Origin: Calditrichia bacterium
GTDB lineage: Bacteria; Calditrichota; Calditrichia; RBG-13-44-9; J075
Assembly (NCBI GenBank): GCA_020635015.1
Contig: JACKAP010000006.1
Coordinates: 76,998 to 140,997, forward strand
DNA length: 64,000 nt
Reading direction: 5' to 3'
Under the pieces are notes generated by a model, which ran no database searches, had not been told where the DNA came from, and saw only the letters and a program-made list of their open reading frames with translations. This document shows positions 3,218 through 60,842 of this stretch, piece after piece (positions within the stretch are counted from its first letter, which is position 1; the number at the start of each line of letters is the position of its first letter). The position numbers were made by a program, and so were the translations under genes.

Positions 3218-3326
3218 ATGGGTTAATGGGTGGATGGGTTAATGGGTAAGAACGGATGTACGTCAACTGATTTTACACCCATTCACTCATTCACCCATTC
3301 ACTCATTCACCCATTCACCCATTCAC
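3212..3326. repeat. hairpin of (GGGTGAAT/GGGTTAAT)n and complementary (ACCCATTC/ACTCATTC)n arms
   Basis: gggtgaatgggttaatgggtggatgggttaatggg ... cacccattcactcattcacccattcactcattcacccattcacccattcac. The left arm begins within the last codon of the Mur-ligase gene and spans its stop. Confidence 0.85.
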
Positions 3327-4099: not shown

Positions 4100-4127
4100 G
4101 TAGGGTAGGGTCGCGACCCTACCCTAC
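4100..4127. repeat. 28-nt perfect palindrome GTAGGGTAGGGTCGCGACCCTACCCTAC
   Basis: Read directly. Lies downstream of tsaC and is followed by (ACATCCA)n at 4145-4175. A near-identical copy is at 60768-60792. Confidence 0.9.
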
Positions 4128-4192
4128 GCGCGCGAATGGTGCAAACATCCAACATCCAACATCCGACATTCGAAACATCACAAGGAGTTCAC

Positions 4193-12294: not shown

Positions 12295-12296
12295 GG

Positions 12297-12568
12297 TGTT
12301 TGCTCGCTTCGCTCGCGATGTTAGTTCGCTTCGCTCACGATGTTTGCTCGCTGGCGCTCGCGATGTTTGCTCACTTCGTTCGCGATATTTGCGCTTCGCG
12401 CGATATTTGTTCGCTACGCTCACGATGTTTGCGCTTCGGGCGTCATGGAACGAAGAATACCTACTCCTCGATACTCGCAAGGTACCGCGCGAAGCGCAAA
12501 TATCGCTCACGAAGTGAGCAAACATCGCGCGAAGCGCAAATATCGTGAGCGACAGCGAGCAAACATCA
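12297..12568. repeat. array of ~22-bp units (TGTTTGCTCGCTTCGCTCGCGA-like): about 7 direct copies, then about 4 inverted copies
   Basis: Read directly. It occupies nearly the whole gap between the convergent GWxTD and BlaR1-like genes. Units abut without spacers. Confidence 0.85.
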
Positions 12569-12588
12569 CTCAAATGCCAAACTTCCCT

Positions 12589-14600: not shown

Positions 14601-14970
14601 AGGCTTGCTAAATAAACAAAACTGCAAAACAAAAGTCAAGAAAAAAAATCCATTGGGGAATTTTATGGCCGGGCAGGTGGGGAAGCGGCTATTCTGAGAA
14701 GGCTTGGGTGACTTGCCTCCTGAAGCGATTCTCGGAATAACAGAGGGATTGTGGTATTTACCACAGGACTCATCTGAAACGGGGCTATCGGTAACTCCAA
14801 AAAAGGCAGGAATTAAAACCGGGGTATTAGTTCATAACCGTTAGACAATAAATTTCATCCCCGAAAAATAATGATCTTGCGCAAGACCGAATAAGACTAT
14901 TTTGAGTTGATTGTGAGTTTGGAAGTGCGGTGGTTGGCGTGAAACATTTTGATCAAAATGATGGCTCTGT

Positions 14971-15014
14971 ACAAAGAAAAACTCCCTCTCCATGCCGCTG
15001 CACGAAAGGGAGTT
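14971..15014 (-). terminator. intrinsic terminator downstream of rpmB
   Basis: On the minus strand, an 8-bp stem (aactccct/agggagtt) is followed by ttttctttgt, about 25 nt after the rpmB stop. Confidence 0.55.
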
Positions 15015-15039
15015 CCTATACCGGATAAAAACACAAATA

Positions 15040-15234
15040 TCAGCTGACCGCTTTTTCGACCTTGCCAGCCTGAATGCAACTGGTGCAGACCATAATCCGC
15101 TTGGTAGCGCCATTAATTACTGCCCGGACCTTTTGAAGGTTAGGGTTAAATCGGCGTAAGGTCTTGTTATTTGCATGACTTACATTCTTGCCAGTCATCG
15201 GTTTTTTGCCACATACTTCGCACATTTTCGCCAT
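15040..15234 (-). CDS. rpmB: 50S ribosomal protein L28
   Basis: [36 protein letters not shown]. Start taken at MAKMCE rather than the upstream ORF start. Confidence 0.92.
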
Positions 15235-15567
15235 GTTGACTCTCCTTATGCTTGTAAAAATAAAGACTCTAAATATATGATATGGAATATCTGAAAACAA
15301 ATCTATTTAGAAATTTTCTTAGATTTTTTGCAGTTTTTGGCTAAGTCGTTATTAAACCGAAGGAAAGCTTGCCGTGTTACGTGAAACCCTCTTTTGTGAA
15401 ACAATTCGGTAATTTTTTTGCAATTTTTTTTACGGGCGATTTGGATAATTGGGGGGACTTTTTTTATTATTAGAGGCTCATTTGGGGTAAGGTAAGCCAA
15501 AAACGATTTTCCAACAAATTCAATTGACCGGGTCAATTGGTAAGGGCCTCTCTTTGTCTGGCCAGGA

Positions 15568-17037
15568 ATGGATTTATTAGGGATGAGTGACGTACAGGCG
15601 GTACGCTTGAATATGCGATCTGACGATTTGGATGCTTCAAGGCCGGCAGGGAGCCACCGGGATGGTGTGAAAGACCAGTGGGAGAAATGCCTGACTGCGC
15701 TGAAGACCGCTTTGCCTTCCCAAACCATTCAGACCTGGTTCCTGCCGATCAAGCCGGTATCCCTGATCGATGAAACCCTCATTCTGACCCTGCCGTCCCG
15801 ATTCTTTCAGGAATGGATCGAATCTCATTATGGCGAGTTGTTCAAGGAAGCGATTGCTGCAGCCTTCGGGGAAACGGTGCAGGTCAAATTCCTCATTGTC
15901 AGCGAACAGGAAGAACAACAGCAAATTGCCGCCGCCGCTCCGTCGCCGGAGGAGGACGCAGGCGGCGAGCAGACCGCCATGCCCGCTCCGGAGGCTTGTG
16001 ATTTCGATCACCGTTTCCACTTTGATAATTTTTTCGGAGGGATGGAAAACCAGTTCGCCCTCAAAGCCACCCAGCATGTGGCCCGGCAGCCCGGCACCAC
16101 CGAGTATAATCCGCTGCTGATCCAGGGAGATATCGGCACCGGTAAAACCCACCTACTCCATGCGTTCGGGAATCATCTCCATGAGCACCGGACGGAAACT
16201 CGCCAAATCCTGCTCTCCGGAGAAGGGTTTCTGCATGAATACGTCAATGCTCTACAGAGCAATCGCACCAACCAGTTTATTGCGCAAATGACGGCGGCAA
16301 ACGTCTTTTATCTGGATGATATCCACTTCCTGGCCAATAAGACCAAATCCCAGGAAGGGCTGCTGTTTGTCATCTCCGAGTTACTGAAACGCAAAGCGCA
16401 GATTGTGATCACCTCCCAACTGGCCCCCAATCAGCTCATCCAGTTCAATCCCAAGCTGATTGCCTTCCTGCAGAAAGGGCTGGTGGTCAACCTCGCTGCC
16501 TGCGATTACAATACCCGCGAACAAATCATCCGCCATCATCTGGAAAAAAATGGGTTGCGGCTGGAAGAAAAGATCATTTTTTACCTGGCGGAGCATCTTC
16601 AGAATAATGTGCACCAGCTTCACTCGGTGATGGTGCGGCTGGTTGCTCAGATGTCGCTGCTTGGGAAAAGCATGACCCTGGAGGAGGTGCGCTATATCAT
16701 CTCCCGGATATGCCCCCAGGACGGTGCCGGCACGCCGGGGGTATCCCCGCACCAGGAGATTCGCATCGACAGCATTGTCACTGCCACATCGAATTTTTTC
16801 AACATCCCGGTCGACATTCTCCAGGGTGTTTCCCGCAAGCAAAAGCTGATCAATGCCCGCCAGATAGCCATCTATCTCTGCCGCGAACTCACCAGCGAGT
16901 CACTAAGCGCCATCGGGTATCATTTCTCCAACCTGAATCATGCGTCGGTGCTGTACTCCTATAATAAGGTCAAGCAAAACATGACCCAAAATCCCCGCCT
17001 GAAATCCACGGTCGACAAAATCAAATCTTTGCTCTAG
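15568..17037 (+). CDS. dnaA: chromosomal replication initiator protein DnaA
   Basis: N-terminal WEKCLTALKTALPSQTIQTWFLPIKP. AAA+ Walker A LIQGDIGTGKTHLL. C-terminal DNA-binding signature AIGYHFSNLNHASVLYSYNKV. The true start may be 15613 (ATG) or 15667 (GTG). Confidence 0.93.
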   Translation: MDLLGMSDVQAVRLNMRSDDLDASRPAGSHRDGVKDQWEKCLTALKTALPSQTIQTWFLPIKPVSLIDETLILTLPSRFFQEWIESHYGELFKEAIAAAFGETVQVKFLIVSEQEEQQQIAAAAPSPEEDAGGEQTAMPAPEACDFDHRFHFDNFFGGMENQFALKATQHVARQPGTTEYNPLLIQGDIGTGKTHLLHAFGNHLHEHRTETRQILLSGEGFLHEYVNALQSNRTNQFIAQMTAANVFYLDDIHFLANKTKSQEGLLFVISELLKRKAQIVITSQLAPNQLIQFNPKLIAFLQKGLVVNLAACDYNTREQIIRHHLEKNGLRLEEKIIFYLAEHLQNNVHQLHSVMVRLVAQMSLLGKSMTLEEVRYIISRICPQDGAGTPGVSPHQEIRIDSIVTATSNFFNIPVDILQGVSRKQKLINARQIAIYLCRELTSESLSAIGYHFSNLNHASVLYSYNKVKQNMTQNPRLKSTVDKIKSLL

Positions 17038-20790: not shown

Positions 20791-20853
20791 CATTGGTTGT
20801 TGGTTGTTGGTTAAGACAGGTCTTTGCCAAAAACCAATGCCCAACAACCAAAA
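20791..20853. repeat. heptamer-arm hairpin (TTGGTTG)n-core ttaagacaggtctttgcc-(CAACCAA-like)
   Basis: ccattggttgttggttgttggttaagacaggtctttgccaaaaaccaatgcccaacaaccaaaagc. Lies between convergent genes. Confidence 0.85.
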
Positions 20854-36526: not shown

Positions 36527-37903
36527 TCAGCCCTTCGCGCTTCGCCCTTTGCCATCTTTTTCCAGCCAGGGCGGCAGCGCTTCCAACTGCTGCACGTATT
36601 CGGTGTTTTCCGCCTGGCGGATGACGGCAATGCTTTTATCCTCACCGATCATCACCACATTGGGACGGAGGTGGATGAACTGCATCCATTGGGTGTTGTT
36701 GTAGGCCCCGACCGGAGAGATCACCACCTGGTCGCCTTTCTCCAGGTAGGGCATCTGGATGGTGTTGCAGATCTCATCGATCTGCATGCACAGCGGTCCG
36801 TAGATGTGATGAGCCTCCTGATTCAACTGGGCTTTATTCTCCGCCGGCAGGATGGTATGGTCGTACCAAAAGGAGGTGAACAGCAGATTGACCCCGGCGT
36901 CCAACACCAGCATGCGCATGCCGCTGTTCATGCGCTTGGTGGCGACCACCTGGGCGATCAGGAAGGCCGACTCATCCACCAGCCCCCGCCCGGTCTCCAG
37001 GAAGAGGGTGGGCAACTGCGCTGCCGGGAAGGCGTTGAGCAGCTCCGCGGTGATCGCCTCGGCATACTGGTCGAAGGAGGGGATGGTCTGGTAGGCCGCC
37101 GGGTAGATCGACGCCTTGAGCTTGTTGTGCGAGGCGAAGCCGCCTCCGATATCGATATAGCGGATCTTGATGCTCTCTGCCTGCTGGATCTGCTGAACAA
37201 AGCCGATCAGCTTGCGCACCTGTTCGCGGTAAACCTCGGCGTTGAGCACAAAGGTGCCGATATGGGAATGGATCCCCACCAGGCGCAGCCACTTGCTGGC
37301 GGCGATCCTCCGTGCCGCCTCGAAGGCCTGCCCGCTCTCCATGTTGAGGCCAAATCGATCCCACGACTGCAAAGTAGAGAGGTTCATATTGACCCGCATG
37401 CCGATCTCGACTTCCCGGCCGAGGTCCTCGGCAATCTGTTCGATCTCGTAAATTTCATCGAAGCTGTCGATGTTGATCATCGCTCCATCCTGAACCGCGA
37501 TTTGCAGTCCGCGAGGCGACTTGTACGGTCCGTTGAAGATGATCCGGTTGCCGGGATTGCCCATCTTGCGGGCCAGTTCATATTCCCATTCCGAGACCAC
37601 CTCCGCCCAGGCGCCGAGCTGGTGATAGCTCCGGCATACCGCCTGCAGATAGTTGGTCTTGTAGCTCCAGGCGAAATGTACTTTGGGATATCGTTTAGAG
37701 AAAGCCCGGTAGGCATTCTGGAAGATCTCCTTCAGCCGCGGGTAGGAATAGACAAAGAGCGGGGAGCCGTAGGCGGCGGTCAACTCGCTGACCGGGATGC
37801 CTTCGATATTGTCCTGAAAGCCGCTGGTCTGCGGTGTGCCGAATTTGCTGGTAATGCCCATTTGCCGCCGCGATATCGCCGGTTTTTGATAGGTCTTTTT
37901 CAT
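36527..37903 (-). CDS. PLP-dependent decarboxylase, Orn/DAP/Arg decarboxylase family (fold type III)
   Basis: PLP-lysine context HFAWSYKTNY. IDIGGGFAS, FLETGRGLV and GPLCMQIDE motifs. 458 aa. Confidence 0.85.
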   Translation of the reverse strand: MKKTYQKPAISRRQMGITSKFGTPQTSGFQDNIEGIPVSELTAAYGSPLFVYSYPRLKEIFQNAYRAFSKRYPKVHFAWSYKTNYLQAVCRSYHQLGAWAEVVSEWEYELARKMGNPGNRIIFNGPYKSPRGLQIAVQDGAMINIDSFDEIYEIEQIAEDLGREVEIGMRVNMNLSTLQSWDRFGLNMESGQAFEAARRIAASKWLRLVGIHSHIGTFVLNAEVYREQVRKLIGFVQQIQQAESIKIRYIDIGGGFASHNKLKASIYPAAYQTIPSFDQYAEAITAELLNAFPAAQLPTLFLETGRGLVDESAFLIAQVVATKRMNSGMRMLVLDAGVNLLFTSFWYDHTILPAENKAQLNQEAHHIYGPLCMQIDEICNTIQMPYLEKGDQVVISPVGAYNNTQWMQFIHLRPNVVMIGEDKSIAVIRQAENTEYVQQLEALPPWLEKDGKGRSAKG

Positions 37904-38994
37904 GATGTCGGTCCTTCATCGGTTGAATGTTGCACAGGATTCGTCTCCGGATAATGGATCTCACCCCGGGAGAGCAGGCTGTCCAGCTGGCTGATTTCGC
38001 CAATCAGATCGATGGTGTAATGGGTGAAGAGTTTGCCCACCTGGTAATCGTTGACCGGTTCCAATTTCCGCCCCCGGGCCAGATCAACGTAATGGGCGGG
38101 CAGGTTGATCTCTGCCGCCACTCCGAGGTAGATCCAGGCGGGAAAGCGCGGGTTGATCTCCAGGATATAGAGTTTCTGGTCGCGCCGGGCCAGCAGGGTC
38201 TCCATCTCCAGCGCGCCCCGCCAGCGAGTGGCGCTAATGAAGCGGCGGGTGAGGTCGAGTAGCTGCTCGTTGCGGATACTCACCCCCGCCCAGCCCTTGC
38301 CCTTGTCGGTGAGCAGGATCTTCTTCATGCACAGGGCGGACACAATGCCGCCGTCGCCCCCGCCCAGCGCCGCTGCATTGAATTCCTCGCCCTGGATATA
38401 TTCCTGCACCAGCAGCGGGTAGCCCCACTTGTTGGCCAGCAGGCGGGCGTAAGAGAGCGCCTGAGGCTGGTCGTGGCAAATGTAAGCGTCGTAATAGATC
38501 CCTTTGACCAGCAGCGGGAAGCCGACCTCCCGCAGCGCTGCCTCCAGATCGGCCAGATGGTGCACCGTCACAGTGCGTGGTACCGCAAAATCAAATTTAC
38601 GGCCCAGTTCCGCCAGGTTGGCTTTGGAGCGGGCCTCGATCTGCGCAGTGGTGGGGATGAACATCCGGGTCCCGCTCTCCCGCAATTCAGCTTCCAGCCC
38701 GGCAAAGTGGGCGATCTCCGAATCCAGGGTGGGGATGATGATGTCGATGGGCGTTCTCTGCCGGATCTCATCCAGGCGCTGCTGCAGCGCCTCCCGCCCT
38801 TCCCGGGGGTAGGGCAGCAGATAGCCGGCACGGAACAGCTCGCGGTCGAACAGCCCGGGATCGATGGCGTCATAGCCGAGGGCGATCAGGCGATAATCCT
38901 GCCCGCCCTGGGCCATCAGACTGCGCGCCACCGCCACACCCGGACCGGGACTCTCCACGGCGTTGACCCCGGTAATGGCTATGGTCAGACTCAT
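37900..38994 (-). CDS. ATP-grasp domain ligase
   Basis: FPLLVKG, PLLVQEYIQGEEF and LYILEINPRFPAW motifs. 4-nt overlaps with both neighbouring genes. Confidence 0.8.
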   Translation of the reverse strand: MSLTIAITGVNAVESPGPGVAVARSLMAQGGQDYRLIALGYDAIDPGLFDRELFRAGYLLPYPREGREALQQRLDEIRQRTPIDIIIPTLDSEIAHFAGLEAELRESGTRMFIPTTAQIEARSKANLAELGRKFDFAVPRTVTVHHLADLEAALREVGFPLLVKGIYYDAYICHDQPQALSYARLLANKWGYPLLVQEYIQGEEFNAAALGGGDGGIVSALCMKKILLTDKGKGWAGVSIRNEQLLDLTRRFISATRWRGALEMETLLARRDQKLYILEINPRFPAWIYLGVAAEINLPAHYVDLARGRKLEPVNDYQVGKLFTHYTIDLIGEISQLDSLLSRGEIHYPETNPVQHSTDEGPTS

Positions 38995-39269
38995 ATGCTG
39001 TTCTCCTGTGTGTCAAAACTGACCAGGCCGAGGTTGATCAGCATTGGGATGAATTCGCGGATATCCTTGTCGAGTACCCGTTCGTCCACTTCGTAAACTT
39101 CCAGCAGGCGGGTTTTGATCGCCTCGGTATCGGTGATGCCTTCTTTGAGGCACTGGATGATGTCTCGGGCAACCTCATTGGTGCTGAGGATTTCCCCGGT
39201 GCCGGGATCGAATACGAACCCGGTATCGCTGATGATGAATTGCTGTAATCTTTCCACATTGTAGCGCAT
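38991..39269 (-). CDS. PqqD family-like small protein (peptide chaperone / RRE-like)
   Basis: 92 aa. FVFDPGTGEILSTNEVARDIIQCLKEGITDTEAIKTRLLEVYEVD...DIREFIPMLINLGLV has the PqqD-family pattern. Confidence 0.65.
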   Translation of the reverse strand: MRYNVERLQQFIISDTGFVFDPGTGEILSTNEVARDIIQCLKEGITDTEAIKTRLLEVYEVDERVLDKDIREFIPMLINLGLVSFDTQENSI

Positions 39270-39287
39270 GGCGAATTCTCCTGAAGA

Positions 39288-39719
39288 TTAGGGGGATACC
39301 AGGTAAGCCCAGATATAGGCGGTCATGCCGTCGAGCTTATAGCCGAGTTTATTGCATACCGCGTCGTCTTCGGCACAGTCTTTTTTTTCCAGCTTGCGCA
39401 GCCAAACCGCGGCCTCGAAGGTGCCGTTGAGGTATTCCGGATCGACCACGATCTCCTTCACCGTCACCCCCTGTTTGATCGAAAAAGAGAGATGCTTGCC
39501 CTCTTCCAGGGTATTGGTCACATTGGGCGGGTAAAGCGAGACCCCCAGCCACATGTCCTTGCCGCTGACGTGGGCAGTGAGGGTTAGTTTGAGGGTGTTG
39601 CCGCCGTTTTTGGTGATCTCGTAGGAGAACCCGATCTGGTCGGTCTGGGCGGCCGCCCCATTTCCAAAGGCGCTGATTAACGCCAGCAGGATGATAAAAA
39701 TTAATGTGTTACGCTTCAT
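39288..39719 (-). CDS. small secreted protein, unknown function
   Basis: 143 aa. Signal peptide MKRNTLIFIILLALISAFGNGAAAQ. Two Cys near the C-terminus. Operon position supports that it is coding. Confidence 0.6.
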   Translation of the reverse strand: MKRNTLIFIILLALISAFGNGAAAQTDQIGFSYEITKNGGNTLKLTLTAHVSGKDMWLGVSLYPPNVTNTLEEGKHLSFSIKQGVTVKEIVVDPEYLNGTFEAAVWLRKLEKKDCAEDDAVCNKLGYKLDGMTAYIWAYLVSP

Positions 39720-39731
39720 AGTGATGACTCC

Positions 39732-40604
39732 TTAGAATTTATAGAACAAACCAAATGTATAGTACACAGCACTGAACTGAAATCCCTGGTCGTCATAGCG
39801 CTCATATTGGACATCCGCATAAGGCTTGAGGTGCTTGCCGAGCTGGTAGTAGGCGGTGAGCCCCAGGTTGGTGGTCAGCATCACGTCGGTGGTGTAGAGC
39901 ACCAGCGTCGAGGGGTTATAAGAAAGTACCTGTTCCCCGAAAATTCCGTAAGCAGTAAGGGTGAGTTTGCGGGGCACGGGGTACCAGGTTAGCTCCGGAT
40001 GCACGCTCCAGCCCCATTTGATATTCTGCACCGGCTGTTCATAAAACGAAAAATGCCCGGAAGCCTGCGCCCAGACATAATAGTTGAACAGGGCCATGCC
40101 CCAGGTGGCGGAGACTTCGGCTTTATCGGCCAGGTCGTTAGGAAAATAGTGCAGATTAAGATCCGCATAATAGCGCCCCGCCGGAGAAAACCAGGAAAGG
40201 GAGAGGTAGCCGGGAAAGGTCTGATCGACCGCCGGAAAAGGCGCCCACAGCGCGCTGCCCTCCAGGGCCAGGGTAAAGCTGCCGCGATGGCGAGTATAGA
40301 AGGTGCGGGCCAGGCTGACCCGCAGGTGGTCGCTGCGGGCCGGCTCGCCGTCGGTTTTGTCGACCGTGATGTCGGTATGGCGCCAGCCCAAGGCCAGCCA
40401 CCAGGTCTTGGCTCGATTGTTATAATAGATGTCGCCCCTTCCGGAGCGAAATACGTCGACCAGGCTGTTTTCGTAGATTCCGTAGACGCCTTTCGCCGCG
40501 ACCGTGAGCGAGGACTGGGCAGATGCCTTGCCGCTCAGGAACAGCGCCAGGCAGATCAGTTGTAAAACCGTAAATTGCAGTAAGCGGGTCGATAAGCGTT
40601 TCAA
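39732..40604 (-). CDS. predicted outer-membrane beta-barrel protein
   Basis: Signal peptide ending ASAQ. Alternating aromatic/polar strands. C-terminal ...YYTFGLFYKF, the terminal-Phe OMP signature. Confidence 0.6.
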   Translation of the reverse strand: MKRLSTRLLQFTVLQLICLALFLSGKASAQSSLTVAAKGVYGIYENSLVDVFRSGRGDIYYNNRAKTWWLALGWRHTDITVDKTDGEPARSDHLRVSLARTFYTRHRGSFTLALEGSALWAPFPAVDQTFPGYLSLSWFSPAGRYYADLNLHYFPNDLADKAEVSATWGMALFNYYVWAQASGHFSFYEQPVQNIKWGWSVHPELTWYPVPRKLTLTAYGIFGEQVLSYNPSTLVLYTTDVMLTTNLGLTAYYQLGKHLKPYADVQYERYDDQGFQFSAVYYTFGLFYKF

Positions 40605-40611
40605 ACCGTAT

Positions 40612-42765
40612 TCACTCCCCGGGTGTCTGTTCGTAATACTCTATTTTATCTAACTTTAATTCGACGCCATTCTCCTGGAGATAATTGAATCCTTCCCCTT
40701 TGCGGAACACCAGTTGGCGGGTGCCAGCCTTGCGCTTGAACGTAAAATGCCATCTGATAAATCCGCCTCGGATCTGCTGGGCCTGCTTGAGCAGAATGGT
40801 TTCGTCGGGCAGTTTTTCCAGGGAATTGTCGATCTCCAGGAAGCAGCGCAGGCCGAAAATGGTAAACAGGTCCAGGAAGTGCACCAGGTAACGGGGCAGG
40901 GTGTAATCCAGGGAGGTCTGGCTGGTCCAATGAAGTTTGCCCGGCGCTTCCGGAAACACCACATCGGTGAGGGTCTGGGCCAGCAGAAACAGGGCGCTGT
41001 TGCGCTTTCCCTGATACTTTTTCAGCGAGAGCACTCCTTCAGACAGGTCGAAATAGAGCCGGTCGCCGTCCTGGTTTTCCAGGCAGAGATTGTTGTAAAA
41101 ATCATTGTGCAGATGCCAGGATTCCTCAGAGCTCAACTTGCCGCTGTTCAGGATCAACTGCCATTTTTTGTAAATTTCATCGAAGAAATATTTGCTGTAG
41201 TCGGCATCATAGCGCAGGTTCTCCACCCGGTCATCTTTGTTGAGGATGCCCTTGGGAAGCAGGCGGTCGGCGGCGTTATCCTGTTTGATCAGCAGATTGG
41301 AAAATTCAAAATAAAGTGCCGGGGCGCCGATGTAATCCTGAGCCTGAAACTGCAGGTGGATATGCGGGTAGGGAGAACGGCCGGAATTGCCGCAGTGCCC
41401 GATTTTATCACCTTTACTGACGGTATCCCCTGCTTTGACGCTGATCGAATCCTTCTGCAGGTGAGCGATGCAGCTGTAGAAATAGGGGGCATGCTCGATG
41501 ATCACGCAGTTGCCCCAGTTGTCGCGGGGATTGGCCTGCCCGGGGCGGTTGTCATAGATGTCATTTTTGACCCGAACGACCGTGCCGTCGGCCGGGGCGA
41601 GCACCAGGGCGTTGTAGCAATAGTAATCGCTCAGCTTCTCCCCGCTGCCGCTGTAAATGCTGCCGCCGGTGTCGCGGATCATGAAGTCGATCCCATAAGC
41701 CCATTCGTCTTTATGGGTATATTCGCCTTTGAATGCCTGGCTCACCACCCAGTCGCTGTAAAAGGGCAGGGAGATCGCCACCCCGTAGCGCCGCCACATC
41801 TTCAGGTTTTCCCGGTAGCTGCTCAGGTTCTCCTCAGGTGATAGCGGGTGGGAACTCAATTCCAGCCCCAGCGAGGGATGGAGGCGCATCTTTAAGGCAA
41901 ATACCACCAGTAGCACCGAGAGGTTGAAAGACAGCGCAAGAGAAGAGAGATAAAACGGCATGGCGATCTCCAGCGCGATCAGGTTCATGTAAACGATAAA
42001 GATGCCGAAGATCGCCAGCAGGAGGCTGGATAGATTCGGGATCAGGAACACCCCGCCCAGCGCCAGGGCGGTGAGCATATAGTTGAAGCCAAGATATTGG
42101 CTGTGAATGAACGCTTCGCTCACCCCGAAAAATTCGTGGATGTAATACCCGCCCAGCCAGCCGATCCCGATCAGCAACAGCGAGAGGCGGGAATAAATCA
42201 GCAGCCCGGCGGCGATCAGGATGCCTGAGATCGGGTTGATGGTGAAAAAGATCGCCCCGAGGTTCTTGAAAAACAGGTTGAGGCTAAGGGGCAAGGCATG
42301 CAGGGAGACGTCAAACACCTGCCAGCGCACCTCCGAAGGGGTCAGGTAGCCGCTGCCAAAGCTGGCGATGATGGCGGTGTAGATGATCAGATTGAAGGGG
42401 AGGCTCATGTAGGGCAGCCCGTAGGCGCTCAAGAAGGTTTTGATCCACATGGTGAAGACGGTCATCAGGATCACCGCAATGATGACCAGGATGACCAGGT
42501 GGAGGGAGACATCGTAATAAAGGCTCAGGCCTAACGCCACCAGAATACCGTTGAAGCCCCATAAGCCTTGCCGTATCTCCTGGCGGCTGAATCCCAGCAG
42601 GTAGGCGACCAGGTTGGCAATCAGCGCCCCTCCCAGGCCGAAGATGCCGTGGGAGGGAATGACCAGGGTTGCCAGCAGGATAATCAATCCCAATGCCTGA
42701 TGTTGTGAAAAGAATATGAGCGAATAGCTTTTTAAGGTACTCTCTGTCCAGAATTTCGCATTCAT
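40612..42765 (-). CDS. fusion protein: urea-transporter (UT)-like polytopic membrane domain + M23/LytM domain + unknown C-terminal domain
   Basis: The N-terminal ~310 aa carry UT-family motifs (IFFSQHQALGL, QGLWGFNGILVALGL). The M23 region has GNSGRSPYPHIHLQF. The last ~220 aa have no motif I recognise. Confidence 0.8.
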   Translation of the reverse strand: MNAKFWTESTLKSYSLIFFSQHQALGLIILLATLVIPSHGIFGLGGALIANLVAYLLGFSRQEIRQGLWGFNGILVALGLSLYYDVSLHLVILVIIAVILMTVFTMWIKTFLSAYGLPYMSLPFNLIIYTAIIASFGSGYLTPSEVRWQVFDVSLHALPLSLNLFFKNLGAIFFTINPISGILIAAGLLIYSRLSLLLIGIGWLGGYYIHEFFGVSEAFIHSQYLGFNYMLTALALGGVFLIPNLSSLLLAIFGIFIVYMNLIALEIAMPFYLSSLALSFNLSVLLVVFALKMRLHPSLGLELSSHPLSPEENLSSYRENLKMWRRYGVAISLPFYSDWVVSQAFKGEYTHKDEWAYGIDFMIRDTGGSIYSGSGEKLSDYYCYNALVLAPADGTVVRVKNDIYDNRPGQANPRDNWGNCVIIEHAPYFYSCIAHLQKDSISVKAGDTVSKGDKIGHCGNSGRSPYPHIHLQFQAQDYIGAPALYFEFSNLLIKQDNAADRLLPKGILNKDDRVENLRYDADYSKYFFDEIYKKWQLILNSGKLSSEESWHLHNDFYNNLCLENQDGDRLYFDLSEGVLSLKKYQGKRNSALFLLAQTLTDVVFPEAPGKLHWTSQTSLDYTLPRYLVHFLDLFTIFGLRCFLEIDNSLEKLPDETILLKQAQQIRGGFIRWHFTFKRKAGTRQLVFRKGEGFNYLQENGVELKLDKIEYYEQTPGE

Positions 42766-42830
42766 CTCCGGCTCTCAGCTTGTGCGATCGAATAGTGAAT
42801 TGCAAACTGGCATTAATCCAACTTTATTAT

Positions 42831-42890
42831 GATGCTGGATACTGGATGCTGGATACAAGATTGGGTCGAGCATCCAGCGTCTTCGGATGT
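42831..42890. repeat. (GGATGCT/GGATACT) hairpin upstream of the six-gene operon
   Basis: gatgctggatactggatgctggatacaagattgggtcgagcatccagcgtc. Confidence 0.75.
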
Positions 42891-42965
42891 ATAGATCGTT
42901 ACCATTCGCATTGTAATATACCGGATTTAATCGCGGTACTCCATCATTGATACATTTTGTTCGCG

Positions 42966-43369
42966 GTTGATGGGTTAATGGGGAAAAGGATAAAGGATAA
43001 AGGATAAAGGATAAAGGATAAAGGTTGAAGATACTGGATACTGGATACTGGATAAAATAAAAATGCTTGTTCAGGTGTGAAAATCGGGTTCATTTAAGCA
43101 TCCAGCATCCAGCATCCAGCATCCAGCATCCAGCATCCAGCATCCAGCATCCAGCATCCAGCATCCAGCATCCAACATCCAACATCCAGCATCCAACATA
43201 TACTCATCAGACAAAGCCATCCGCAAAAACTTGCAAATTTCCTATTGACCTGACCCGATCCCTTCAACATATTTCCGCCGCAATGAAAAATCAACCCATC
43301 AACCCATCAACCCATCAACCCATCAACCCATCAACCGATCAACCCATTAACCCATCAACCCATCAACCC
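42966..43369. repeat. composite simple-repeat element (left copy): (GGATAAA)n-(GGATACT)n-unique core-(GCATCCA)n-spacer-(CAACCCAT)n
   Basis: Read directly. It ends exactly at the ATG (43370) of the S9 peptidase gene. Inverted partner at 45296-45527. Confidence 0.9.
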
Positions 43370-45295
43370 ATGAAAACATTACCCTATGGCACCTGGCCAT
43401 CACCGATTACCGCCGATCTCATCGCTGCCGCCGGGCGGCGGCTGGGCGATATCGCCGTCGATGGAGATTCGGTTTACTGGATCGAAAGTCGCCCGGAGCA
43501 GGAGGGGCGCAATACCATCATGATGTGGAACCCCGGCGGGGAGTTTCGGGAAGTTACCCCGCCGCCTTTTAATGTGCGCTCCCGGGCCCATGAATACGGC
43601 GGCGGCGCTATGGCGGTGTATGGCGGCCGGGTGTTCTTTGTGAACGATGCAGATCGCCAGATCTATCACATTCCTCCCGGCGGATCCCCGCAGGCGCTGA
43701 CCAGCGAATCCGATACCGCCTATGCCGATATGATCCTCGATCCGGCGCGCCAGCGGCTGATCCTGGTGCAGGAGCATTATTTTGATGACAGCCGCCCGCC
43801 CCGCGACATGCTGGCCGTGCTTTCCCTGCGCGGCCGCCCGGGATATTGTGAGCCGCTGGTGAGCGGGAACGATTTCTATGCCAGTCCCGCCCTGAGCCGC
43901 GACGGCCGGCAGCTTTGCTGGCTGAGCTGGGACCATCCGGCAATGCCCTGGAACGGTACTGAATTATGGGTGGCGGAGGTAGGGGATGACGGTCAACTGC
44001 GCCGCCGGCGCCGGATTGCCGGAGGCGCGCAGGAGTCGGTGTTCCAGCCGCAATGGGGTACAGACGGCACCCTGTATTTTGCTTCCGACCGCAGGGAGGG
44101 CTGGTGGAACCTCCATGCCTGGGATGGGCACACCATCCGGCCGGTGCTGGAGATGGCTGCGGAGTTCGCCTTGCCCCAGTGGGTTTTCGGAATGTCGACC
44201 TATTGTATTTTGAATGAGCGTTGTATCGCCGCTGCGTACACCCGGGAGGGGCGCTGGGAGATGGGGCTGATCGATCCGCAGCGCGGTGATCTGGAGGCCC
44301 TGGCGCTGCCCTTTAGCTATATTACCCAGGTTCGCGGCGCCGGGGAGCGGATCGCTTTTGTCGGCGCTGCGCCGGATGCAGCGGAGGCGGTTTATACCCT
44401 GGAACTGCCGTCGCAGCACCTGCAGATGTTGCGGAAATCCAGCGATCTGGAGGTGGATGCCGGCTATATTTCCACCCCGCAGGCAGTGAGTTTTGAAAGT
44501 GATGGCGAGGAGGTGCACGGCTTTTTCTATCCTCCCAGCAATCGCGATTTCAGCGCTCCGGAGGACGAAAAACCTCCGCTGATCGTATTCATTCACGGCG
44601 GTCCCACGGCGGCGGCGAACAGCGGATTGGATCTTCGCAAACAATTTTGGACCAGCCGCGGCTTTGCGGTGCTCGACGTCAACTACCGGGGCAGCACCGG
44701 CTATGGGCGGGCGTACCGGGAAAGCCTCAACGGCCGTTGGGGGGTGGCCGATGTGCAGGATTGCGTCAACGGCGCCCGGCGTCTGGCGGCGCAGCAGCAG
44801 GCGGATCCGGAAAGGCTGCTGATCCGCGGCGGCAGCGCCGGGGGATTCACCGCCCTGGCGGCGCTGACTTTTCACGATTGTTTCCGGGCCGGGGCGAGCT
44901 ATTATGGCATCAGCGATCTGGAAGCGCTGGAGCAGGAGACCCACAAGTTTGAATCGCGCTACAATCATCAATTGATCGCCCCCTATCCCGCCGGTAAGCC
45001 AGTCTACCGCGAACGCTCGCCGCTGCACCATGCCGGGGATCTGAACCGCCCGGTGATCTTCCTGCAGGGCCTGGAGGATCGGGTGGTGCCCCCCGGTCAG
45101 GCGGAAAGAATGGCCCACGCCCTGCGTAAACGCGGCGTGCCGGTGGCTTATCTTACCTTTGAGGGCGAAGGGCACGGCTTCCGCAAGCCGGAAACCATCC
45201 GCCGCGCCCTGGAAGCGGAGTTGTTCTTTTATGGAAGGGTGCTGGGATTCGAGCCCGGGGAGAAGCTTGATCCGGTGCAGATAGATAATTTGTGA
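43370..45295 (+). CDS. S9 family serine peptidase (prolyl oligopeptidase / acylaminoacyl-peptidase type)
   Basis: Beta-propeller N-terminal half. Catalytic nucleophile motif IRGGSAGGFTALAAL and C-terminal ...EGEGHGF. The ORF part upstream of 43370 is translated repeat DNA. Confidence 0.88.
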   Translation: MKTLPYGTWPSPITADLIAAAGRRLGDIAVDGDSVYWIESRPEQEGRNTIMMWNPGGEFREVTPPPFNVRSRAHEYGGGAMAVYGGRVFFVNDADRQIYHIPPGGSPQALTSESDTAYADMILDPARQRLILVQEHYFDDSRPPRDMLAVLSLRGRPGYCEPLVSGNDFYASPALSRDGRQLCWLSWDHPAMPWNGTELWVAEVGDDGQLRRRRRIAGGAQESVFQPQWGTDGTLYFASDRREGWWNLHAWDGHTIRPVLEMAAEFALPQWVFGMSTYCILNERCIAAAYTREGRWEMGLIDPQRGDLEALALPFSYITQVRGAGERIAFVGAAPDAAEAVYTLELPSQHLQMLRKSSDLEVDAGYISTPQAVSFESDGEEVHGFFYPPSNRDFSAPEDEKPPLIVFIHGGPTAAANSGLDLRKQFWTSRGFAVLDVNYRGSTGYGRAYRESLNGRWGVADVQDCVNGARRLAAQQQADPERLLIRGGSAGGFTALAALTFHDCFRAGASYYGISDLEALEQETHKFESRYNHQLIAPYPAGKPVYRERSPLHHAGDLNRPVIFLQGLEDRVVPPGQAERMAHALRKRGVPVAYLTFEGEGHGFRKPETIRRALEAELFFYGRVLGFEPGEKLDPVQIDNL

Positions 45296-45527
45296 GTGGA
45301 TGGGTGGATGGGTTGATGAGTGGATGGGTGGATGGGTTAATGGGTTGAGATGCTGGATGCTGGATGCTGGATGCTGGATGCTGGATGCTGAAATGAACCC
45401 GATTTTCGCACCCGAACAAGCATTTTTATTTTACCCAGTATCCAGCACCTTCAACCTTTATCCTTTATCCTTTATCCTTTACCCTTTATCCTTTATCCTT
45501 TATCCTTTTCCCCATTCACCCATCAAC
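45296..45527. repeat. composite simple-repeat element (right, inverted copy)
   Basis: Starts 1 nt after the S9 peptidase stop. It is the reverse complement of the left element, including the unique core (4 substitutions in ~56 nt by my count). Confidence 0.9.
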
Positions 45528-45562
45528 AAGCAATCGCAAAACCACGAAAGGTAACCGACTTA

Positions 45563-46798
45563 ATGATCTACCAATCCGTCCACAAAACCATTCTCCCCAA
45601 CGGCCTGACCATCGTTTCCGAGCACATCCCTTACGTGCGTTCGATTTCCCTGGGTGTATGGGTGAAGTCCGGCAGCCGCAGTGAAACCCCGGAGAATAAT
45701 GGGGTTGCCCACTTCCTGGAACATCTGCTGTTCAAGGATACCGAGCGGCGCAGCGCTCGCGACGTGGTGCGCAATATCGAGTCTTTGGGCGGAATGATCA
45801 ACGCTTACACCAGCAAAGAGCAGACCTGCTTTCACGTGGAGATTCTTGATGAACACCTTCCCCAGGCGGTGGACGTGCTGGCGGATATCCTGTTCCGCAA
45901 GGGTTTTCCGGAAAATGAGATCGAAAAAGAACGGGAGGTGATCCTGGATGAGATTCAGTCGCTGGAAGACACTCCGGATGAACTGGTGCAGGATATCCTG
46001 ATGGAAAAACTCTACCCCGGCCACAGTCTGGGATTTTCGATCCTGGGTACGGAGCAGTCTATTGCTGCCCTGACCCTGCGCGAGTTGATGAATTTTTACC
46101 ATGCCCATTATTGCCCCGGCAATATCATCATCGCCGCCGCCGGAAATCTGGAACATGCCCGCCTGGTGGATTTGGCACAGGGCAGCTTTTCCTTTTCCGA
46201 TCAGCCTTGCGATTCCAGCGTGGAGGCCCCCCGGCAGTACGGAAAGGGCGAAGTGCGGATCACCCGCCCGATCAACCAGGCGCATGTCTGCCTGGGGATG
46301 CCCGCCTTCTCCTACAGTGATCCCCGTAAATACGATCTACTGGTGCTGAATACGGTTCTGGGCGCCGGGATGGGCTCGCGCCTGTTCCAGAATATCCGGG
46401 AAACATACGGCATCGCCTATGGGATCTACTCGTTTTTTGATTTCTTCAGCGACAACGGCATGTTTGGGGTCTATCTCGGCACCGATCCGAAAAAAGTGCC
46501 CCGGGCGCTGGAACTGGTGGAGAAAGAACTGGCGGTGCTTTGTAAGCGGCAGATACCCCGGCAGGAACTGCAGGAGGCCCAATCTCAACTGAAGGGCAAC
46601 ATCGTACTGGGACTGGAAAGCACCGCCGCGCGCATGAACCGGCTGGCCATGTTGGAAATCTATTTCGATGGTTTCAAGACGATCGATTACATCGTAGAAG
46701 CGATCGACCGCACCACCCGGAGGTCGGTGTGGGAAACCTCCTGCGAGCTTTTCCGGCCGGAGAACTTTCTGCGGGTGGTGTTCTCGCCGGAGGGTTAG
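45563..46798 (+). CDS. M16 family (pitrilysin-like) zinc peptidase
   Basis: Inverted zinc motif GVAHFLEHLLFKDT. 411 aa. Confidence 0.88.
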   Translation: MIYQSVHKTILPNGLTIVSEHIPYVRSISLGVWVKSGSRSETPENNGVAHFLEHLLFKDTERRSARDVVRNIESLGGMINAYTSKEQTCFHVEILDEHLPQAVDVLADILFRKGFPENEIEKEREVILDEIQSLEDTPDELVQDILMEKLYPGHSLGFSILGTEQSIAALTLRELMNFYHAHYCPGNIIIAAAGNLEHARLVDLAQGSFSFSDQPCDSSVEAPRQYGKGEVRITRPINQAHVCLGMPAFSYSDPRKYDLLVLNTVLGAGMGSRLFQNIRETYGIAYGIYSFFDFFSDNGMFGVYLGTDPKKVPRALELVEKELAVLCKRQIPRQELQEAQSQLKGNIVLGLESTAARMNRLAMLEIYFDGFKTIDYIVEAIDRTTRRSVWETSCELFRPENFLRVVFSPEG

Positions 46799-46826
46799 TG
46801 CATAAGTCATCATCCTGTAAATACCG

Positions 46827-46926
46827 TTGCATGGGGCATGGGGCATGGTGTATTACAGTGCGAGTGTCGACGTATACGCTAGCACATGACGGCGCCATGC
46901 GCTTTGCCCTTTGCCCCATGCAAAAG
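46827..46926 (+). repeat. ~95-bp palindromic MITE/REP-like element, copy 1
   Basis: Terminal inverted repeats TTGCATGGGGCATGGGGCATGG / CCATG..CCCCATGCAAAAG, with an internal core tattacagtgcg...gcgc..acggcgcc shared with copies 2 and 3. Confidence 0.85.
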
Positions 46927-49478: not shown

Positions 49479-49482
49479 GGGG

Positions 49483-49604
49483 GACGAAGGGTGAAGGATG
49501 AAGGATGAAGGATGAAGGATGAAGGATGAAGGATGAAGGATGAAGGATGAAGGATAAAGGATAAAGGATGAAGGATAAAGGATGAAGGATGAAGGATGAA
49601 GGAT
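49483..49604. repeat. (GGATGAA)n / (GGATAAA)n heptamer array filling the whole intergenic spacer
   Basis: About 17 heptamer units lie between the MerR-family stop (49478) and the next start (49605). Confidence 0.9.
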
Positions 49605-49970
49605 ATGTCGGAACGTAAATCGCCACGACTCAGTGGAGGCATCCAAAAATTTTGGGAAGAGCGGGAGCAGTTGAATGAAACCGTGCTGAAAAATGCCGGC
49701 CTCACCACCCGGCGTTTTTTCAGTCTGGATCATCAGGCCTACCAGGAAGGCGCTCTGCCGGTCAAGACCAAGGAACTGCTGGGCCTGGTCGCCTCGCTGG
49801 TGCTGCGCTGCGACGATTGCATCTCCTATCATCTGGTGCGCTGCCGGGAAGAAGGGGTGAGCGCGGCAGAATTGGAAGAGGCGCTGTCGATCGGGCTGGT
49901 CGTGGGAGGCTCTATCACCATTCCCCATCTCCGCCGGGCCTTCCGCGCCTGGGAGGAGATGGAAGGCTAG
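49605..49970 (+). CDS. carboxymuconolactone decarboxylase (AhpD-like) family protein
   Basis: LVLRCDDCISYH CxxC motif. About 120 aa. Confidence 0.75.
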   Translation: MSERKSPRLSGGIQKFWEEREQLNETVLKNAGLTTRRFFSLDHQAYQEGALPVKTKELLGLVASLVLRCDDCISYHLVRCREEGVSAAELEEALSIGLVVGGSITIPHLRRAFRAWEEMEG

Positions 49971-52769: not shown

Positions 52770-52858
52770 TTTTTGCATGGGGCATGGGGTATTACAGTGC
52801 GGGTCTCGGAATATGCGCTTGCGCATTACGGCGCCATGCCCTATGCCCCATGCAAAAG
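52770..52858 (+). repeat. ~95-bp palindromic MITE/REP-like element, copy 2
   Basis: Same termini and core as copy 1. Lies in the divergent promoter region between the FHA-GAF-PAS gene and the MarR-family gene. Confidence 0.85.
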
Positions 52859-55708: not shown

Positions 55709-57028
55709 GTGAAAACCGCCTGTATCATCGGCGCCGGCGCCTCCGGTATTACCGCCGCGAAAACCTTCCGGGAGCAGGGAATTGATTTTGACTGCTTTGA
55801 GAAAGGTTCCGGTATCGGCGGCAACTGGCGCTACGGAAACGACAACGGGATGTCTTCCGCCTACCGCTCCCTGCATATCATCTCCAGCAAGTGGAACATG
55901 CAGTATTCCGATTATCCCATGCCGGAAGATTTTCCCGACTACGGCCATCACAGCGATGTACTGCGTTATTTCGAGAATTATGTCGATCACTTTGGCATTC
56001 GCGAGACCATCCGCTTTCATTGCGAAGTGAAAGAGGTGACGCCGCACTCCCGGGATGGCTGGGAGGTGACCCTCGCAGGGGGCGAGCGCCGGAACTATCG
56101 TGCGGTGGTGGTGGCCAACGGCCATCACTGGAATCCCCGCTGGCCGGAATTTCCCGGAAGCTTTCACGGAGAAGCAATCCATTCTCATCATTATAAAACG
56201 CCCGAGGCCTTTGAAGACAAAAATGTGCTGATCGTCGGGATCGGAAATTCCGCCTGCGATATTGCGGTCGACCTCTCCCGCCTGGCCCGCACGGTGCATC
56301 TTTCTACCCGGCGCAGCGCCTATGTGCTTCCGAAATATGTGCTGGGAATTCCCAATGATCAATGGCTTCATCCGCTGTTCGATTATTTCCCGCTGGCCCT
56401 GCGTCGCACCGCCTTCCGGATATTGGCCTACATGACCGTTGGTAACCAGGAGCGCTACGGCCTGCCCCGGCCCCGCCACAAATTGTTGCAGGAGCATCCC
56501 ACTCTGAATCAGGAATTTTTGTCCTACGTGGGACACGGGCGGATCAAGATCAAACCGGATATCCGCGAACTGCAGGGGGAACGGGTGGGGTTCGTCGACG
56601 GCAGCAGTGAACCGTTCGATACGATCATTTATGCCACCGGCTATAACATCACCTTTCCGTTTCTGAAGCCGGAAGTGTTTACGGTGCAGGACAACCGGGT
56701 ACACCTTTACCGGCGGGTGATCGATCCGGAATTGCCCAACTTGTTCTTCCTGGGGCTGATCCAGCCCCTCGGGGCGATCATGCCCCTGGCGGAGTTGCAG
56801 GCCCGCTGGATCGCCGGGCTGCTGAACGGCGAGATGGCCCTGCCGGACGAAGGGCGGATGCGCCGCGATATCGAGGCCGATCGTTCCCTCCTGCGCCGCC
56901 GCTACACCGACTCCGCCCGCCATACCATCCAGGTGGATTTTTGGGATTATGTGCACCAACTGAAGCGGGAAATGCGGAAAGGGAAGAAGCTTGCTGATAG
57001 GAAAAGGAGGATGAAGGGTGAAGGATAA
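55709..57028 (+). CDS. flavin-containing monooxygenase
   Basis: FAD motif ACIIGAGASGITAAK, FMO motif FHGEAIHSHHYK and NADPH motif VLIVGIGNSACDIA. GTG start 2 nt after the RlpA-like stop. Confidence 0.85.
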   Translation: MKTACIIGAGASGITAAKTFREQGIDFDCFEKGSGIGGNWRYGNDNGMSSAYRSLHIISSKWNMQYSDYPMPEDFPDYGHHSDVLRYFENYVDHFGIRETIRFHCEVKEVTPHSRDGWEVTLAGGERRNYRAVVVANGHHWNPRWPEFPGSFHGEAIHSHHYKTPEAFEDKNVLIVGIGNSACDIAVDLSRLARTVHLSTRRSAYVLPKYVLGIPNDQWLHPLFDYFPLALRRTAFRILAYMTVGNQERYGLPRPRHKLLQEHPTLNQEFLSYVGHGRIKIKPDIRELQGERVGFVDGSSEPFDTIIYATGYNITFPFLKPEVFTVQDNRVHLYRRVIDPELPNLFFLGLIQPLGAIMPLAELQARWIAGLLNGEMALPDEGRMRRDIEADRSLLRRRYTDSARHTIQVDFWDYVHQLKREMRKGKKLADRKRRMKGEG

Positions 57029-57145
57029 AGGGCAAAGGATAAAGGGCAAAGGATAAAGGAATAACCTTGATTGACATTGGGACTGGATTTTGTTCTGTTT
57101 CAGCATCCAGCATCCAGCATCCAGTACAACCCATCAACCCATTTA
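57008..57145. repeat. composite simple-repeat element: (GGATAAAGG/GGATGAA)n-core-(GCATCCA)n-(CAACCCAT)n
   Basis: Same module order as the element upstream of the S9 peptidase gene. It overlaps the last codons and the stop of the FMO gene. Confidence 0.85.
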
Positions 57146-58698: not shown

Positions 58699-58798
58699 CT
58701 TTTGCATGGGGCATGGGGCATGGCGCCGTAATATGCAAGCGCATGGTCCGACACCCGCACTGTAATACACCATGCCCCATGCTCCTGGCCCCATGCAA
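58699..58798 (-). repeat. ~95-bp palindromic MITE/REP-like element, copy 3 (inverted orientation)
   Basis: Its reverse complement aligns with copies 1 and 2. Sits between kefG-like and kefC-like. Confidence 0.85.
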
Positions 58799-58875
58799 TA
58801 TAACTTGACACTATACTCAGTCTGAGCAGACTCATTCTGAGCGATCCGAAAAACTCAAAAACAGGAAATAGATCC

Positions 58876-60771: not shown

Positions 60772-60792
60772 GGTAGGGTCGCGACCCTACCC
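60768..60792. repeat. second copy of the GTAGGGTAGGGTCGCGACCCTACCC palindrome
   Basis: Overlaps the kefC stop codon (TAG 60769-60771). Followed by (CCCCTCAA/CCCATCAA) repeats to about 60826. Confidence 0.9.
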
Positions 60793-60842
60793 ACACCCCT
60801 CAACCCCTCAACCCATCAACCATAACACGGAGCACATACATC

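Follow-up and report, generated by a model that had tools for sequence, protein, structure and literature searches.

We analysed a 64-kb stretch of contig JACKAP010000006.1 from a Calditrichia bacterium (GenBank assembly GCA_020635015.1), called the window below, in which a gene for an S9 family serine peptidase is bracketed from its ATG to its stop codon by two inverted copies of a mosaic repeat (sequence read in 42600-45900). The gene (43370-45295, plus strand) encodes 641 amino acids with the Pfam domain PF00326 (E 4.6e-51), and the protein is identical at 641/641 positions to P0255 (MCB9088848.1), which is encoded on a 280-kb contig. The NCBI names of the S9 and M16 proteins come from Calditrichota/Calditrichia metagenome-assembled genomes. 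Upstream lies a divergent gene for a fusion of a urea transporter and an M23 peptidase (40612-42765, minus strand; PF03253 and PF01551), and downstream follows an M16 (insulinase-type) peptidase gene (45563-46798, plus strand; PF00675 and PF05193). A first-pass annotation of this DNA had suggested that the bracketed gene might be an invertible or mobilisable cassette, the footprint of an insertion, or the source of an mRNA that is circularised or exposed to RNase III by pairing of its two ends. Our analyses point rather to two opposite-orientation copies of mosaic, self-folding hairpin elements made of short tandem repeats, which are common in the intergenic DNA here, and we regard this as the probable explanation.

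Structure of the two flanking elements

The modules read as the annotation had described them. On the plus strand the left element has the order c (GTTGATGGGTTAATGGGG) - A - GGTTGAAG - b (ATACTGG) - core - B (GCATCCA) - 90-nt spacer - C (CAACCCAT), with repeating units GGATAAA for A, GGATRCT / GCATCCA for b/B and GGGTKGAT / CAACCCAT for c/C. Its outer 5' arm c (42966-42983) is followed by an A array of about six AAAGGAT units (42984-43022), by the GGTTGAAG linker with a b array of 3.6 ATACTGG units (43023-43053), and by a unique core of 42 nt (43054-43095). The B array (43097-43199) holds 14.7 GCATCCA units with AACATCC variants. Beyond a unique 90-nt spacer (43200-43289), which has no counterpart on the right, the C array (CAACCCAT x10.2, 43290-43371) abuts and overlaps the start codon. 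Tandem Repeats Finder (TRF) reported (AAAGGAT) x10.4 at 42985-43056, a row that merges GGATAAA and ATACTGG units, (AGCATCC) x14.7 at 43097-43199 and (ATCAACCC) x10.2 at 43290-43371, the final unit of which gives the AT of the ATG at 43370. A small separate hairpin of the same units as the flanks (GATGCTGGATACTGGATGCTGGATAC ... GCATCCAGC) lies further upstream at 42831-42885 (TRF row 42831-42856) and is the same in all alleles described below.

The right element, also read on the plus strand, consists of a c array, a b array, the core in reverse complement, a short B, the linker CCTTCAACC, an A' array and a short C. Its c array has seven units (TGAGTGGA/TGGGTGGA/TGGGTTGA/TGGGTTAA, 45293-45348), and the stop codon TGA (45293-45295) is made of the first three bases of the first unit, TGAGTGGA. 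Then come six GATGCTG units of the b array (45349-45390), the second copy of the core (45391-45432, minus strand), a short B remnant (CCAGTATCCAGCA) with the CCTTCAACC linker (45433-45454), 7.7 CCTTTAT units of the A' array (45455-45508) and the outer 3' arm C' (CCCCATTCACCCATCAAC, 45509-45527). The TRF rows on this side were an 8-mer array from 45293, (GATGCTG) x6 at 45349-45390 and (CCTTTAT) x7.7 at 45455-45508.

The longest inverted repeat joins 42957-43137 to 45349-45529, two arms of 181 nt that are 86 % complementary without a gap. A second set of arms is formed by the C array (43291-43371) and the c array (45293-45348), which are 84-87 % complementary. The match extends beyond low-complexity sequence to the unique core, which recurs with 2 mismatches in 42 nt and had a match in 0/100 dinucleotide shuffles. 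With its edges included (about 54 nt), the core differs by 4 substitutions between the copies, the number counted in the annotation, and outside the arrays the left copy diverges from the right copy by about 6 %.

Each flank is also complementary to itself. The left element alone folds as a nested hairpin of -98.9 kcal/mol (z -4.2) and the right element alone as one of -101.4 kcal/mol (z -6.1), because c complements C and b imperfectly complements B. The c/C arms are terminal inverted repeats that are paired in the minimum free energy (MFE) structures of the left element (42966-42983 with 43343-43360), of the right element and of the alternative left allele. Since these outer arms are complementary to each other, the term inverted orientation concerns only the inner A-b-core-B part. 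No target-site duplication was found, the borders cattttgttcgcg|GTTGATGGG and CCCATCAAC|aagcaatcg and the borders on the gene side having no direct repeat in common. This self-complementarity went beyond the first-pass annotation, as did two further points, the recurrence of the same arrays in many intergenic regions and the polymorphism of their copy number.

Tandem arrays in the window and in metagenomes

Arrays of period 7 or 8 with at least 2.8 copies were counted over the window and compared with 100 block shuffles. There were 22 such arrays, against 0.22 in the shuffles (maximum 2), and 19 of them were intergenic although intergenic DNA makes up only 10.6 % of the window; the remaining three lay at the edges of crude calls of open reading frames (ORFs). 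At least one array occurs in 12 of the 35 spacers of 40 nt or more. Besides the start and the stop of the S9 gene, arrays overlap a stop codon at 3215-3217 and a start codon at 49605. TGA or TAA is part of the c and A units, and a G after CAACCCAT completes an ATG, which allows arrays to run into stop and start codons. A third composite at 57008-57142 (plus strand) comprises an A array, one b unit, B x3.4 and C x2 in the same order around a different core, and is followed by an SDR gene at 57176. The entire spacer between the MerR and CMD genes (49479-49604) is occupied by (GGATGAA/GGATAAA)17, which reaches from the stop codon (49478) to the start codon (49605). A c-loop-C hairpin at 3207-3326 begins within a Mur ligase stop codon and has GTTTTTT directly after it. 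Repeats that meet a start or stop codon exactly are thus nothing unusual in this DNA. The core itself was present in only two copies in the 64 kb; its pattern had no match in the JGI metagenomes or viral contigs, and BLAST searches with the left element gave no match among plasmids and phages.

The (GCATCCA)4 pattern, by comparison, was found in at least 120 JGI metagenome contigs of 38-67 % GC, mostly in intergenic positions. Among the matches listed, A or C arrays accompanied (GCATCCA)n in none of the contigs and an inverted partner was present in only 8. In the same matches, with GCATCCA on the plus strand, the next gene was on the minus strand in 42 cases versus 21, at a median gap of 25 nt; on the sense strand, (GGATGCT)n thus tends to follow stop codons closely, and the array after S9 is an instance of this. 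Other heptamer arrays are present in many of these contigs, and several, for example L151, L130, L119 and L143, carry a large number of them.

On its complementary strand the C array reads as a canonical G3N5 quadruplex motif, and similar motifs occur at 3212-3246 and 60785-60814; the right c array is not strictly a motif. Over the whole window quadruplex motifs were not significantly enriched (8 versus 4.6 expected). The tract (GGGTTGAT)4-5 and its complement is a candidate former of G-quadruplexes or i-motifs.

Other repeat families were noticed in the window. A dispersed hairpin family of the form TTTTGCATGGGG(CATGGGG)n - core of about 45 nt - (CCCCATG)nCAAAA occurs at 46826-46925, 52774-52858 and 58703-58800 with its core in both orientations, and the copy between the M16 and AlaDH genes is kept, with fewer units, in contig L216 of the sister species described below. 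Another hairpin family, (TTGGTTG)n-TAAGAYAGGTCTTTGCC-(AATGACC)n, is found at 1870-1935 and 20793-20853. Between convergent genes at 12295-12588 there are tandem units of about 22 nt (TGTTTGCTCGCTTCGCTCGCGA, at least 6 copies) followed by inverted copies, a longer-unit version of the tandem-repeat hairpin theme. GC-rich palindromes of the GTAGGGTCGCGACCCTAC type directly follow stop codons at 4100-4130 and 60772-60792 of the window and at 3993-4015 of L216; this further dispersed family is small, and its members may be terminator stems.

The window belongs to the core chromosome, with genes for dnaA, an ftsY-like SRP54 protein, a Mur ligase, kinases and peptidases. No transposase, integrase, invertase, recombinase or RAYT domain was found by Pfam among its approximately 52 genes, and the window contains no tRNA or tmRNA gene that could mark an integration site. 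No Rfam family reached its gathering threshold in the whole window, the best matches below it being plant miRNA models (27 bits versus 88). Directly 5' of dnaA (15568-17037; Bac_DnaA, DnaA_N and Bac_DnaA_C) lies an AT-rich non-coding gap of 935 nt (region 14633-17037), probably the replication origin of the chromosome. The minus-strand genes at 36527-42765 encode an Orn/DAP decarboxylase, an ATP-grasp protein (ATPgrasp_Ter), a PqqD-like protein, two ORFs without Pfam match and the urea-transporter/M23 fusion, itself an unusual combination, and they may constitute a cluster for peptide modification, similar to those for ribosomally synthesized and post-translationally modified peptides (RiPP-like). 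Horizontal acquisition of the S9 gene, considered on grounds of composition, was rejected because its GC content of 60-66 % is matched by other genes of the window. Spurious ORFs are called through the arrays, such as one of 90 amino acids at 7473-7744 of contig L087 and a TTG-started one of 742 amino acids at 43067-45295 of the window.

Alleles of the flanks in strains and relatives

Contigs of the same species from other assemblies were collected through the neighbouring proteins. The right element including its core was present in all six contigs that cover it (L081, L087, L212-L215), which rules out an assembly artefact on this side. The left element was a different matter: its A array, b array and core (allele 1) were not reproduced in the three other assemblies compared. 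In L087, L089 and the gap-free L215, all of which have the same urea-transporter/M23 neighbour, the left flank reads c5 - TAAAAACGGACGTACGATAAGCGATTTTATATCA - B8 - spacer - C (allele 2). A loop of 34 nt, resembling the loop of the hairpin at 3247-3275, stands there in place of A-b-core. The two alleles differ by a replacement between common c and B arrays and not by an insertion, and there is no target-site duplication. Allele 2 also folds on itself (-97 kcal/mol, z -8.6). Because three other assemblies of the species lack the left A, b and core modules, the presence of the core on both sides of S9 is strain-specific.

Unit numbers varied between samples of the species, from 4 to 7 for the right b array, from 5 to 8 for A' and from 10 to at least 15.5 for C, values that are minimal or approximate because short reads do not assemble long arrays reliably. 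The 90-nt spacer was identical across strains and the S9 protein was 99-100 % identical. Given that S9 is so well conserved between strains while the two cores are about 6 % apart, the sequences suggest that the left core was probably donated by a third copy, or else that the polymorphism is old. The same divergence outside the arrays rules out a left element that is merely a collapsed duplicate of the right one, and there is a small residual chance that it is a chimeric join to a third copy. Most contigs of the species end inside arrays; those that start or stop there, in the species and its sister together, are L082-L086, L088, L089, L212-L214 and L216. The arrays break short-read assemblies, and such elements are therefore under-represented in databases based on metagenome-assembled genomes.

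A sister species, from sample DRR333436, has S9 and M16 proteins that are 90 % and 92 % identical to those of the window. Its S9 start codon is likewise abutted by (CAACCCAT)n, after its S9 stop codon come a short c unit and (GCTGGAT)n, and 5' of its M16 gene we read ...AGCATCTTCAACC(TTTATCC)2TTTTCCCCATTCACCCAT..., with the B remnant and linker kept (L216) and two units in the A' array. The module order is thus the same as in the window and the unit counts are different. In the MerR-CMD spacer (L216 3991-4054), a GGGTCGAGTCGCGACTCGACCC palindrome and a normal GGAG ribosome-binding site are found instead of (GGATGAA)17.

In a more distant relative (L090), M16 is 62 % and S9 56 % identical end to end, with the same start and stop positions, and the block S9-M16-AlaDH-deacetylase-MerR is conserved. 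Its S9 gene has a long nested hairpin on either side (z -8.1 and -6.3), each composed of unrelated units, and no inverted repeat or pairing between the flanks was found across S9 in this contig. The conserved feature is that each spacer folds on itself, not that the flanks pair with each other. These sequences show the synteny to be ancestral and S9 not to have arrived as an inserted cassette. An exact look-up of the S9 protein gave no match, and a scan of genome-collection contigs for S9 yielded only relatives of at most 53 % identity from many phyla, with no close relative among them and none of use for comparing the flanks.

Origin of the flanks and comparison with known repeats

The explanation that we consider probable is that both flanks are copies, in opposite orientation, of hairpin elements that would be a general intergenic feature of this Calditrichia lineage. 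They are built from tandem arrays with units of 7-8 nt, which are nested as inverted repeats about a unique core and let each copy fold back. The elements may settle in available spacers and grow until coding sequence is reached. We have shown that the arrays evolve fast, by slipped-strand change of copy number. In addition, we infer that arrays at separate sites could undergo ectopic recombination or gene conversion and so exchange the material that lies between arrays, and such exchange would be the route by which one strain gained a core copy on either side of an S9 gene that is itself old and syntenic. If the elements have a function, it might be that of local stem-loops at gene boundaries, by analogy with the repetitive extragenic palindromic (REP) sequences and bacterial interspersed mosaic elements (BIMEs) or with BOX elements. 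The S9 promoter is probably located in the unique 90-nt spacer, and the leader would therefore consist of the unstructured (CAACCCAU)n tract only.

Several points weigh against this explanation. The promoter assignment and any role in RNA are read from sequence, and the basis of the analysis is 64 kb plus short contigs of this genome, so that the term genome-wide is an extrapolation. Elements are also found between divergent genes, where a role as terminator or stabiliser makes no sense; no T-run follows the right element, and no terminator-like site was found in 45296-45562. The donor of the left core was not found among the sequences compared. Finally, the arrays around S9 have kept their positions at 90 % protein identity, which hints at selection and is not explained by a purely neutral or selfish model.

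As to pairing of the flanks in RNA, the annotation had noted that the untranslated regions (UTRs), if both are transcribed, could pair over more than 200 nt. When both flanks were co-folded, 209 intermolecular base pairs were indeed predicted at -365.7 kcal/mol, compared with -200.3 kcal/mol for separate hairpins, so that a 209-bp duplex between the 5' and 3' ends would be thermodynamically possible provided that both flanks are transcribed together. Such a double-stranded RNA of about 200 bp would close the S9 mRNA and might act as an RNase III target or as a block to exonucleases or translation. Cross-gene complementarity of C with c and of B with b is retained in allele 2, and the sister species retains the upstream C and the downstream c and b arrays. 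However, the left A/b/core modules are missing from 3/4 assemblies of the species, the c array of the sister species is only about 10 nt long and L090 lacks cross-gene complementarity altogether. The only plus-strand sigma-70-like site, TTGACC-17-CATATT at 43245-43273 in the spacer (9/12 matches, with a regional count not above chance), lies 3' of the c, A, b, core and B modules and would leave only the C array in the leader. This G-free tract, (CAACCCAU)10, has an MFE of 0.0 and could still pair with the c array (-125.1 versus -101.4 kcal/mol). Moreover, local hairpins would form earlier, during transcription, and S9 has no canonical terminator after it. Thus the energetic part of the proposal stood, and a closed mRNA, whether circularised or cut by RNase III, seems unlikely to us. 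A little less likely still is a portable promoter/leader module, c-b-core'-B'-A'-C', that faces outward and serves the gene it points at, namely M16 for the right copy and, for the left copy of this strain, the urea-transporter/M23 gene, with S9 simply in between. Both copies are oriented alike relative to the outward gene, and the outward strand of the core offers promoter-like motifs, TTCACA-16-TATTTT on the left (minus strand, weak, 9/12) and TTCGCA-16-TATTTT on the right, but the right motif reaches only 8/12, under the scan threshold, promoter-like counts are not above chance, and the third composite at 57008-57142 is oppositely oriented to its downstream gene. The RNA folds better in the outward orientation, with b/B' mismatches turned into G-U pairs, although this asymmetry is weak evidence because G-rich strands always gain G-U pairs. 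For this confounding by G content we rejected folding-energy asymmetry as a guide to the transcribed strand.

The arrays might also be functional cis-elements themselves, that is, protein-binding or non-B-DNA tracts. The c/C arrays could act as G-quadruplexes or i-motifs, the C-rich and G-poor (CAACCCAU)n and (GCAUCCA)n as Rho loading sites or translation enhancers independent of a Shine-Dalgarno sequence, and the A array as a source of the Shine-Dalgarno-like AAGGA. The quadruplex motif in the complement of the C array, the G-free unstructured leader tract, the metagenome (GGATGCT)n arrays that follow stops at a median of 25 nt on the sense strand (42 versus 21 among the matches listed), array positions that fit the rule reported for quadruplex-forming GGGNATC repeats, and TAACTGA repeats that likewise take the place of ribosome-binding sites are consistent with this. 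On the other hand, quadruplex motifs show no overall enrichment, most arrays (A and b/B) have units without G-tracts, the sister species does without the (GGATGAA)17 spacer, and no factor is known to bind the arrays. We think it improbable that this accounts for the flanks. By far the least credible proposal is that S9 was flipped or moved through its inverted flanks, or came in as a composite element. Inverted repeats longer than 180 bp and 1.9-2.2 kb apart make good substrates for recombination, but the six informative contigs that link S9 to a unique flank, from different samples, all show a single orientation (0/6 inverted), no recombinase or transposase is encoded in the 64 kb, there is no target-site duplication, and the base composition of S9 is within the range of its neighbours. 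The comparison of orthologous loci that the annotation had recommended went against a cassette as well: both the sister species and L090 have S9 in this synteny block, and in L090 its gene ends are conserved at 56-62 % protein identity. The striking picture of a gene between inverted repeats can therefore arise without a mobile or invertible cassette, from fast-evolving tandem-repeat hairpins.

Perhaps the 7-8-nt arrays are a lineage-wide cis-regulatory vocabulary, in which expression is set by the complementary arrays that share a transcript; we offer this as a speculation with little probability. If it were true, the C-rich, G-free tracts ((CAACCCAU)n and (GCAUCCA)n) would be unstructured leaders, Rho loading sites or factor-binding sites, and their G-rich complements directly after stop codons would be anti-sequences. 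The 200-bp duplex that recombination would have made around the S9 mRNA would then provide a natural on/off pair, allele 1 versus allele 2, and the recurrence of (GGATGCT)n after stops in many unrelated metagenome contigs would reflect a common binding factor or a bias in polymerase slippage. Independently of this speculation, the pair of left-flank alleles is a natural experiment on the effect of an element on expression.

Returning to the hairpin elements that we favour, they have parallels in modular intergenic mosaics with variable internal tandem modules, such as BOX of Streptococcus pneumoniae (boxA-boxB(n)-boxC) and the BIMEs of enterobacteria, which combine REP sequences with linker motifs. 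These elements fold back stably, are found between genes in both orientations, and influence the stability of mRNAs or the expression of neighbouring genes. Their modules are 20-60 nt long, whereas those described here are arrays of 7-8 nt, and there is no sequence relationship. In the REP/REPIN-RAYT system the REP sequences rely on RAYT transposases; no Y1 (RAYT) transposase domain was found among the approximately 52 genes of the window. Our elements resemble miniature inverted-repeat transposable elements (MITEs) in being small, non-coding and intergenic, in having terminal inverted arms (c/C) and in occurring in either orientation. They differ from MITEs in having no target-site duplication and only two copies of the core in the 64 kb, in an allele difference that is a replacement, and in that no cognate transposase was found in the window. 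For the short tandemly repeated repetitive (STRR) sequences of cyanobacteria, Mazel and colleagues reportedly described, in 1990, several heptamer families that are tandemly amplified in intergenic DNA throughout the genome. Several heptamer families are likewise present here, with other units and in another phylum, and we know of no description of STRR sequences as ordered composites with nested inverted arms.

Similar in unit length are the GGGNATC / GGGGA(C/T)T heptamer arrays of Xanthomonas and Nostoc, which are intergenic, contain 2-26 units and in some cases overlap stop codons; their positions are conserved among close relatives, while copy number and sequence vary (Rehm et al. 2015, PMC4692102). 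Inverted pairs of these arrays can form stem-loops, they have no link to mobile elements and their function is not known (PMC4692102). The c and C arrays around S9 show the same placement geometry. Differences are that the G-tract unit here is an octamer (GGGTKGAT) without preference for four units, in the phylum Calditrichota, and that at least three array types are joined in one set order to give inverted repeats nested about a unique core. TAACTGA direct repeats, abundant between genes in marine Beggiatoaceae, cyanobacteria and some Bacteroidetes and also of unexplained function, end within a few nucleotides of start codons, where they replace the Shine-Dalgarno site (MacGregor 2015, PMC4679880). 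Their patchy phylogenetic distribution is similar to that of (GCATCCA)n in metagenome contigs of 38-67 % GC, but they consist of one heptamer, mostly in 2-6 copies and forward only, with no hairpin, mosaic or common core. Within Calditrichota, the genome paper of Caldithrix abyssi reports only an 18-nt REP-like palindrome, and we found nothing further on tandem or heptamer repeats in the literature on this phylum, nor any description in the searchable literature of ordered heptamer/octamer composites with nested stems around exchangeable cores. The elements fall, as a variant, among the known intergenic heptamer-repeat and mosaic palindromic elements, and they provide a third example at the level of phyla of unexplained heptamer repeats, beside those of cyanobacteria and Xanthomonas and those of Beggiatoaceae.

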